Assembly: GCA_963729605.1 (NCBI GenBank)
Contig: CAVSNY010000004.1
Span: forward strand, 96,001-160,000
DNA: 64,000 nt
DNA from: an uncultured Gammaproteobacteria bacterium
GTDB taxonomy: Bacteria; Pseudomonadota; Gammaproteobacteria; DRLM01
Direction: 5' to 3'
The translations under genes and the position numbers were made by a program. Each line of letters starts with the position of its first letter. Within the stretch, counting starts at the first letter, position 1. Positions 53,472 through 53,641 of this stretch are shown piece after piece. Under the pieces are notes generated by a model. That model saw only the letters and a list, made by a program, of their open reading frames with translations, had not been told where the DNA came from and made no database searches.

Positions 53472-53539
53472 CTGCCTATGCGGCAGTGAATGTGAAATTT
53501 AAGTATTACTATTTCTAAGCTGCCTTTTCGGCAGGGACT
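53472..53539 (-). ncRNA. Degenerate CRISPR mini-array (repeat - 20-nt spacer - partial repeat); candidate Cas-regulating crRNA-like RNA
   Basis: The minus strand reads AGTCCCTGCCGAAAAGGCAGCTTAGAAA (22/28 to the array repeat) + TAGTAATACTTAAATTTCAC + ATTCACTGCCGCATAGGCAG (17/20 to the repeat 5' part). Both Cas6f stems (CTGCC/GGCAG) are intact. Confidence 0.85.
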
Positions 53540-53590
53540 AGATGTGGCGGTGCAAAGTATATTTTGTGCTGAGAAGTGTTGCTAGGAGTA

Positions 53591-53641
53591 TTTAAATTTA
53601 AGAAATACTAGGTTGACAAGTGAAGTTCTGCTTCCTATTCT
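53591..53641 (+). promoter_or_regulatory. Predicted sigma70 promoter of the csy operon with an adjacent PAM-flanked target of the mini-array spacer
   Basis: TTGACA (53613-53618)-N17-TATTCT (53636-53641). The minus strand reads CC-TAGTATTTCTTAAATTTAAA at 53612-53591. Confidence 0.8.

Follow-up and report, generated by a model that had tools for sequence, protein, structure and literature searches.

An antisense mini-array in the cas2/3-csy1 intergenic region of a gammaproteobacterial type I-F1 locus and its likely role in repression of the csy1 promoter

What lies between cas2/3 and csy1 in a type I-F1 CRISPR-Cas locus (CRISPR, short palindromic repeats that are clustered and regularly interspaced), and does the locus hold in this gap a means of restraining its own effector complex? 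We consider this question for an uncultured gammaproteobacterium (assembly GCA_963729605.1, contig CAVSNY010000004.1, positions 96,001 to 160,000), in a stretch of 64,000 nucleotides, here called the window, to whose numbering all plain coordinates refer and inside which Pfam matches place a complete type I-F1 locus on the plus strand. The cas2/3-csy1 gap of this locus measures 369 bp and is AT-rich, with a GC content of 45% vs 61% for the window. On its minus strand it carries a mini-array, in which two degenerate CRISPR repeats enclose a spacer-like sequence of 20 nt that resembles a site at the csy1 promoter. An initial annotation of the window had proposed that a short guide made from this element represses the csy1 promoter, and with it the operon that encodes the effector.

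The sequence features of the mini-array are real and not a product of chance. It is likely, in our judgement, that the element is the gene for a CreA/CreR-type regulatory RNA, resembling a CRISPR RNA (crRNA), that represses the csy1 promoter by means of the organism's own Cascade. The guide mechanism itself is already known, having been published in 2023 and extended in 2024-2026.

Anatomy of the mini-array and its target

The minus strand between cas2/3 and csy1 reads exactly as the initial annotation had claimed, as repeat, 20-nt spacer and repeat, and the Cas6f stems and the 5' handle are kept as it had stated. The elements of the mini-array and of the site that it matches, including the CC protospacer-adjacent motif (PAM), are as follows:

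53539..53512, minus strand: repeat-like 1 (psiR1), 22/28 identical to the array consensus, stem 10/10, 8-nt handle CTTAGAAA 8/8
53511..53492, minus strand: spacer-like guide (psiS), 20 nt, TAGTAATACTTAAATTTCAC
53491..53464, minus strand: repeat-like 2 (psiR2), 18/28 identical to the array consensus, stem 10/10, handle part 3/8
53457..53429, minus strand: intrinsic-terminator-like hairpin and T-run from a consensus scan, directly 3' of repeat-like 2
53556..53561, minus strand: possible -10 box (TATACT) of a mini-array promoter, weak and seen by eye only
53610..53591, minus strand: target site with its CC PAM at 53612-53611, matching the guide at 16/20, mismatches at positions 6, 8, 18 and 20
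53613..53641, plus strand: predicted promoter-like sequence TTGACA-N17-TATTCT facing csy1, its -35 box TTGACA (53613-53618) abutting the PAM

The Cas6f hairpin of psiR1 (CTGCC-GAAAA-GGCAG) is kept and its 5' handle is intact; the hairpin of psiR2 (CTGCC-GCATA-GGCAG) is likewise intact, and the portion 3' of its cleavage site is degenerate. That divergence is limited to loops and flanks, as had been proposed, can be put in numbers: if the two stems and the psiR1 handle are taken as the 28 positions on which processing and loading depend, all 16 of the 16 mismatches to the repeat consensus lie outside them (hypergeometric P = 7.3e-7). What has decayed is the 5' flank of psiR1, both loops and the post-cleavage portion of psiR2, and these are the parts of the repeats that Cas6f does not read or that a mature RNA no longer contains. 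In the 3.48-Mb genome there are 298 forward and two reverse copies of the stem motif, both reverse copies being those of the mini-array. Rfam model CRISPR-DR4 matches both repeat-like sequences on the minus strand, with 26.5 bits for psiR1 and 19.5 bits for psiR2, below the gathering score of 35. When the minus-strand RNA is folded both Cas6f-type hairpins appear in the minimum free energy structure and in the centroid structure, with the spacer unpaired and a structure z of -1.59. The hairpin and T-run that follow psiR2 fit a short minus-strand transcription unit, and by eye terminators of the same kind likewise stand after the second hairpin in related loci.

Direct comparison upheld the match of spacer to target, its four mismatches and its CC PAM as they had been reported. 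The target lies 79 nt from the spacer. Only one in 20,000 composition-preserving shuffles of the spacer reached at least 16/20 at any of the 16 CC-flanked sites between the mini-array and csy1 (53540-53796), and among the three non-self 16/20 matches to the spacer in the whole genome this target alone has a CC PAM, so that of all CC-flanked sites in the genome it is matched best. The PAM does abut the TTGACA of a promoter facing csy1, as claimed, and in a consensus scan of 53350-53850 this was the only promoter-like site. A plus-strand match of 15/20 at 53583-53602 was rejected as a second target; it is not flanked by CC and arises from the A/T palindrome in the target. Elsewhere in the genome, just upstream of an XRE-type helix-turn-helix gene, an inverted repeat (C2:277915-277968) has in one of its arms the same 12 nt with which the spacer begins, here with a PAM of TT; no repeat-like hairpin adjoins this site, and the recurrence is probably due to chance.

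Covariation of spacer and target in related loci

Searches for close relatives of this intergenic region found none, and I-F loci were therefore sampled more widely. A Csy1 search for related loci returned one locus among genome contigs (L029, 58% identity) and none among metagenome contigs, and a Csy1 search at the level of the class gave 27 other loci, 28 counting the present one. These were scanned by script for the pattern of hairpin, handle, 15-45 nt and second hairpin. An antisense mini-array stands upstream of csy1 in 6 of the 28, this one included, and a sense-strand one in none. All six spacers differ, and the best CC-flanked match of each is found in its own locus, at 16/20, 15/19, 15/18, 15/19, 16/24 and 13/15, cross-locus bests being 7-13; the observed own-locus value was attained, for the six loci in the same order, by 0, 0, 2, 1, 62 and 1 of 5000 shuffles.

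A pattern scan of metagenomes for short-spacer mini-arrays with this handle gave a further set of 80 loci. Where csy1 is divergent from the mini-array (25/80), 19 of the 25 have a target reached by at most 1/200 shuffles. A second layout, with csy1 co-oriented with the mini-array, accounts for 12/80 (L059, L075, L076, L079, L082, L085, L087, L093, L116, L132, L133 and L136); the target is significant in 11/12 and in all 11 lies 41-49 nt downstream. In these co-oriented loci Csy1 is only 22-29% identical to that of the present locus, the CC-flanked target is on the same strand, and positions 6 and 12 are mismatched in most. Among the 39/80 loci with no csy1 within the fetched stretch, 6/39 have a significant target.

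Pooling gave 31 non-redundant I-F loci, from other genomes and from metagenomes, in which a mini-array is accompanied by a target flanked by a PAM; no common spacer is seen among them, and each spacer pairs with its own target. The pooled loci were filtered to have at most one mismatch in positions 1-11, position 6 excepted, and mismatch frequencies in positions 1-11 are biased because the filter selects them, those at position 6 and from position 12 onward being unbiased. Mismatches fall at position 6 in 24/28 loci, at position 12 in 20/28 and at position 18 in 20/27; position 13 is mismatched in 1/28 and positions 14-17 in 3-7/28, and from position 19 about half or more of the loci are mismatched. 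The concentration at 6, 12 and 18 agrees with the view, put forward at the outset for the present guide, that mismatches at 6 and 18 are tolerated. The placement of the promoter recurs as well: a -35-like TTG followed by A, C or T begins no more than 5 nt beyond the PAM in 23/31 loci, vs 7.1% of control windows, and a full TTGnnn-N16-18-TAnnnT follows the PAM in 22/31. In one pair of loci, L032 and L111, the spacers are related and differ by six changes, each of which is mirrored in the target, while positions 6, 12 and 18 drift independently. The covariation of spacer and target that the initial annotation had named as a check on its proposal is thus borne out by the loci of family members, not by copies of this mini-array.

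The sequencing runs that were searched bear on how fast the region changes. None contained half or more of the sampled words. Metagenome runs X1 and X6 contain relatives of cas2/3 and csy1 at about 95% identity (window 52500-55000), the contigs of which break at or before the mini-array and become unlike the window upstream of 53687 (X1) and 53792 (X6); a third run, X4, has a near-identical contig of 320 nt over 53570-53889. On this sequence evidence the intergenic module turns over much faster than the genes that flank it. The plasmid collection, searched with blastn in its distant mode, gave no match. A handle-plus-seed pattern scan of viral contigs gave three hits with no I-F stems nearby, which were rejected as chance matches in one AT-rich phage gene, and no spacer mimic was found among them.

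Proposed mechanism and its published counterparts

The genes on which such a guide would act, and the array with which it would compete for Csy protein, are arranged as follows:

49124-50140, plus strand: cas1
50137..53427, plus strand: cas2/3 (Pfam Cas3_I-F_Cas2, Cas3-like_C_2, Cas3-like_C and Cas3_HD), convergent with the mini-array
53797-55110, plus strand: csy1 (Pfam Cas_Csy1)
53797..57672, plus strand: csy1-csy2-csy3-cas6f operon (Pfam Cas_Csy1, Cas_Csy2, Cas_Csy3 and Cas_Csy4), the presumed repressed genes
57801..64000 and on past the window, plus strand: main I-F CRISPR array, repeat GTTCACTGCCGCGCAGGCAGCTTAGAAA

The csy1 frame is open for 59 codons 5' of the ATG at 53797 (window 53620-53796); a start at 53797 is favoured because of the Pfam match and an AGGAGA-N7-ATG site. 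Followed through the whole genome the main array comprises 297 repeats over about 17.8 kb (C4:153806-171568), which is unusually long. One of its spacers is present twice, in units starting at 58998 and 59478 that are eight units apart, and a few units are spaced 59 or 61 nt.

The anatomy of the mini-array, its non-random character and the covariation across loci are matters of observation. Transcription, processing, binding and repression in this organism may be pictured by analogy with other I-F systems, for which each step has been reported in the papers discussed below. A minus-strand transcript would begin a short way upstream of repeat-like 1 and run to the terminator that follows repeat-like 2, and Cas6f would cut after both hairpins to leave an RNA of about 48 nt, in which CUUAGAAA, as the 8-nt handle, precedes the guide (20 nt) and the hairpin (20 nt). 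The Csy complex that forms on this RNA would be a shortened one, its Csy3 subunits probably numbering four and not six, and it would recognise the CC PAM at 53612-53611 and pair through positions 1-17 of 53610-53591, with 6 and 18 flipped out. The complex would then sit directly against the -35 box of csy1 and block RNA polymerase, and the short, incomplete R-loop would not license cleavage by Cas2/3. The outcome would be negative feedback on csy1-csy4, which would lift once crRNAs from the 297-repeat array titrate the Csy proteins away or anti-CRISPRs block them.

All of the sequence-level features of the I-F CreA/CreR family are present here, namely the hairpins, the handle, the short spacer, the PAM-flanked target and the covariation. 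The spacer has 20 nt, less than 32, and pairs partially and PAM-proximally; its extra mismatch at position 8 is atypical. Covariation, together with published I-F experiments, supports by analogy the view that a short guide represses the csy1 promoter without Cas3 cleavage.

The published counterparts can be compared with the present locus on the features stated in the cited reports. I-F1 mini-arrays have been described near cas3, between cas3 and cas8f and antisense to cas3, with short spacers and position-6 mismatches, their CC PAM adjoining the cas8 promoter, and with the Pseudomonas aeruginosa mini-array Cascade alone repressed the Cascade promoter, with no plasmid interference (Shmakov 2023, bioRxiv 10.1101/2023.03.03.530964). 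P. aeruginosa CreA1 has a 20-nt psiS with mismatches at 6 and 12, and its mature RNA, for which a length of 48 nt is assumed, was detected by a spacer-specific probe; P. aeruginosa creT consists of a Shine-Dalgarno sequence, a two-proline mini open reading frame (mini-ORF) of 15 nt whose consecutive proline codons precede the stop, and a GC-rich hairpin, and the CreTA1 toxin shares the csy promoter (Wang 2026, bioRxiv 10.64898/2026.06.02.729485). We infer that the YL84-type mini-array of the former report is the CreA1 of CreTA1 of the latter. The present element shares with it the position between cas2/3 and csy1, the orientation antisense to cas3, a pair of degenerate repeats in which the Cas6f hairpin survives, the preserved psiR1 handle, the 20-nt psiS (a 48-nt RNA), the CC PAM, the PAM-proximal pairing with position 6 unpaired, and a targeted promoter that also serves the csy genes; repression free of interference is an experimental result in P. 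aeruginosa, whereas here the parallel is one of sequence only. The spacer and target sequences are unrelated, the handle is CTTAGAAA here and CTAAGAAA in P. aeruginosa, and the PAM here abuts the -35 box, whereas the P. aeruginosa -35 box lies about 30 bp downstream of the target. Furthermore, the small element downstream of the promoter is not a 15-nt two-proline mini-ORF.

In Acinetobacter baylyi ADP1 the -35 box of the CreA-CreP system lies immediately downstream of the CreA target (bioRxiv 10.1101/2024.01.05.574328), as it does here, and there too creA is in the cas3-csy1 intergenic region and the PAM is CC. The ADP1 psiS is longer, 30 bp with 25 nt kept in the mature RNA, and the ADP1 guide controls a KilAC-domain protein toxin, of which there is no counterpart in this gap. 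The name CreR was given to toxin-less RNAs that regulate cas genes in subtypes I-B, I-E and V-A, in which they were validated, the I-F cases being listed from manual searches only (Liu 2023, bioRxiv 10.1101/2023.03.10.532045). The present mini-array resembles CreR in being a degenerate mini-CRISPR, with no working toxin, that would guide the effector to its own promoter in a feedback that senses crRNA load and anti-CRISPRs, and it differs in that the subtypes validated there are other than I-F. Lastly, in cryo-electron microscopy of viral Cracr there were six Csy3 subunits on a 60-nt RNA, five on one of 54 nt and mainly four on one of 49 nt (bioRxiv 10.1101/2024.10.29.618823). Cracr likewise is a short-spacer I-F guide whose Csy complexes have fewer Csy3 subunits and repress the same promoters; it is carried on phages and plasmids, whereas this mini-array is inside a host cas locus. 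By analogy these structures support the further claim of the initial annotation that a shorter guide would take up fewer Csy3 subunits.

With respect to the literature, therefore, the autoregulatory idea keeps its mechanism and loses its novelty, regulatory mini-arrays, CreR and CreA having been in print since 2023. The proposal that the guide represses its own operon is supported too, with the qualification that the promoter repressed in those I-F modules that have been studied best drives a small toxin (creT or creP) as well.

Several observations weigh against the reading of the mini-array as a guide gene for csy1. Position 8, in the seed, is mismatched, which is rare (2/28 loci) and could weaken binding, and position 12 is paired here though it is usually unpaired in the family. 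The consensus scan of 53350-53850 found no promoter-like site on the minus strand, and RNA run X20 gave no contig over 53004-53927, a silence on expression that we count on this side. No homologue of the intergenic region was found in 40 relatives of this genome, and no mini-array was seen at the nearest Csy1 loci, L031 (59%) and L029 (58%, the latter examined by eye). In the relative at about 95% identity from run X1 the stretch between the hairpins is different and about 9 nt longer, and the promoter region cannot be aligned. Because turnover is so fast, function is not to be read from the conservation of this particular copy.

The csy1 leader and alternative explanations

The predicted csy1 promoter would also transcribe a leader of 148 nt (53649-53796), and this bears on the most serious alternative, that the locus is a working CreTA addiction module in which the guide is an antitoxin (CreA) silencing an RNA toxin, creT, in the leader, such that losing or inhibiting Cascade would lead to arrest of the cell. 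One block of the leader is the focus of this alternative:

53674..53745, plus strand: leader block homologous to creT, from alignment with loci L032, L033 and L035, from folding and from a 27-aa ORF list

Lying downstream of the CreA target, the block occupies the stretch that separates the targeted promoter from csy1 and is divergent from the mini-array; its counterpart in the alignment is a block common to L032, L033 and L035. An intact creT-like mini-ORF block is present in L033 (by eye), L035, L062, L073, L095 and L102, and creT-like mini-ORFs also occur in L032, where the frame has no stop and runs on into csy1, and in L064. In the related loci a Shine-Dalgarno (SD) sequence AAGGAGG is followed after 4-9 nt by ATG or GTG, the fifth codon is CAY and can pair with the start codon, and a doublet stands at codons 8-9 (AGA AGA, ATA ATA, TTA AGA, TCA ATA and TTA TTA among the examples). 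The frame stops at codon 10-12 and is followed by a GC-rich hairpin, and a stable 5' hairpin is present too. AGA, ATA and TTA are called rare here on the codon usage of the present genome alone. Neither the doublet at codons 8-9 nor its combination with a start-codon hairpin is described in the passages on creT that are cited here.

These mini-ORFs fit the creT of Acinetobacter WCHA45, a 33-bp mini-ORF behind an SD sequence, with TTT, AGC and CAT as codons 2, 3 and 5 and with the start codon inside a 5-bp stem (pairs A1-U15 to U4-G12), the toxicity of which needs the SD sequence and an AUG, GUG or UUG start (Wang 2023 Nat Commun, PMC10097628). The comparison rests on the features stated in that report and not on an alignment of the WCHA45 sequence. 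The present locus resembles the WCHA45 I-F CreTA in its divergent creA within the cas3-csy1 gap (about 400 bp there, 369 bp here), in its CC-flanked target and in having a block with an SD-preceded mini-ORF downstream, whose hallmarks the relatives of this locus hold: TTT as second codon, RGC as third, CAY as fifth, and the start codon in a stem. Unlike in WCHA45, the start codon, SD sequence and start-codon hairpin are not kept here; and in WCHA45 the transcription start site is upstream of the CreA target, whereas here the target is upstream of the -35 box.

The losses can be followed feature by feature. The SD sequence is AAAGGGG (53674-53680) and not the AAGGAGG of the relatives, and is weakened, not abolished. 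The position homologous to the start codon reads CTG (53688-53690), or GTC in the other register, where the relatives have ATG or GTG. The fifth codon is TGT here vs CAY in the relatives, as a result of which the start-codon stem cannot form; the doublet at codons 8-9 of the homologous frame has become AGA GAA by a change of its second rare codon; and nothing here corresponds to the relatives' strong 5' hairpin. The leader folds instead with a different hairpin, of 7 bp, whose loop contains a downstream AUG, and overall it is not unusually structured (z = +0.75).

Two short frames remain, one running from the CTG to a TAA ending at 53717 and the other from the ATG at 53699 to a TGA at 53725 (ATG TCG TGT CAG AGA ATA AGC AGT TGA). 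Both contain AGA, a codon rarer in this genome than any other sense codon (1.46 per 1000), and in the ATG frame AGA and ATA stand in tandem. A GC-rich hairpin follows them at 53727-53745, as in P. aeruginosa creT; it is the only P. aeruginosa-type feature present, the proline doublet being absent from both frames.

A working toxin-antitoxin module can call on the alignment of the leader, on the intact mini-ORFs of the relatives with their WCHA45 features, on the hairpin and rare codons just described, and on the P. aeruginosa precedent of a CreTA1 toxin that shares its promoter with the csy genes. Against it, toxicity in WCHA45 was seen only with AUG, GUG or UUG, whereas the start here is CTG or GTC, so that two defining features of the WCHA45 type, the start codon and its hairpin, fail. 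The altered SD sequence, fifth codon and doublet and the missing 5' hairpin point the same way, and the alternative ATG at 53699, 11 nt past the CTG, has no SD sequence at a usable distance. Among the small ORFs of the gap none is convincing as a protein and none has a KilAC domain. We regard a working addiction module as unlikely.

It is likelier, from the sequence, that the leader block is a decayed creT. Because it looks decayed, autoregulation of csy1-4 is the likelier present role of the guide, and the module probably now works as a pure autoregulator. Since the guide gene, the PAM-flanked target and the promoter are intact and creT has lost its key features, the locus may even have been caught while a CreTA addiction module was becoming a pure CreR autoregulator, a reading that we put forward tentatively and do not hold to be the more probable one. 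Other layouts were seen in the survey: in L111, L099 and L070 csy1 directly follows the target, which is the pure CreR layout, and in L091, L103, L128, L129 and L077 the mini-ORF is replaced by a small protein ORF after the targeted promoter, several of these being hydrophobic. These last ORFs may encode cargo proteins or toxins that the guide controls.

I-F loci often have arrays flanking the cas genes on both sides, and this counts in favour of a second alternative, that the mini-array is the remnant of another CRISPR array that decayed between cas2/3 and csy1, with an accidental similarity of spacer and promoter. Long arrays do replace the mini-array in some related loci (Shmakov 2023, bioRxiv 10.1101/2023.03.03.530964), and spacer and target are both AT-rich and of low complexity, with two other 16/20 hits in the genome. 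Random decay, however, would not spare exactly the stems and handle of a mature RNA (P = 7.3e-7, as above), and a CC-flanked match arises in only 1/20,000 composition-preserving shuffles. The layout recurs with unrelated spacers in the 31 non-redundant loci, with a 6-nt periodicity of mismatches and with compensatory changes. We consider a remnant array very improbable. The last alternative, that spacer and target are 20-bp AT-rich direct-repeat operators of a protein regulator beside incidental repeat-like hairpins, can point to the 12-nt recurrence upstream of the XRE-type gene (C2:277915-277968) and to the A/T palindrome that the target overlaps, but on a rough estimate one such match of 12 nt is not unexpected among 7 million positions, and the CC PAM, the mismatches at 6 and 18, the handle, the hairpins and the covariation with unrelated boxes would all go unexplained, so that we give it next to no credence.

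With the mini-array read as a guide gene, the locus opens no new kind of mechanism. To the I-F systems that probably use a crRNA-like guide to hold their own Cascade in check it adds one from a GC-rich environmental host whose array has 297 repeats, and for annotation it means that the 369 bp separating cas2/3 from csy1 are occupied, by a regulatory RNA gene, an operator and a promoter. The survey of 31 non-redundant loci is an independent check on the published rules of a CC PAM and pairing to about position 17, with positions 6, 12 and 18 free and a -35 box against the PAM. It also hints that toxin-bearing and toxin-less forms interconvert and, if the locus is indeed caught between the two, toxin-guarding and autoregulating I-F mini-arrays would be two states of one evolving module and not separate inventions.

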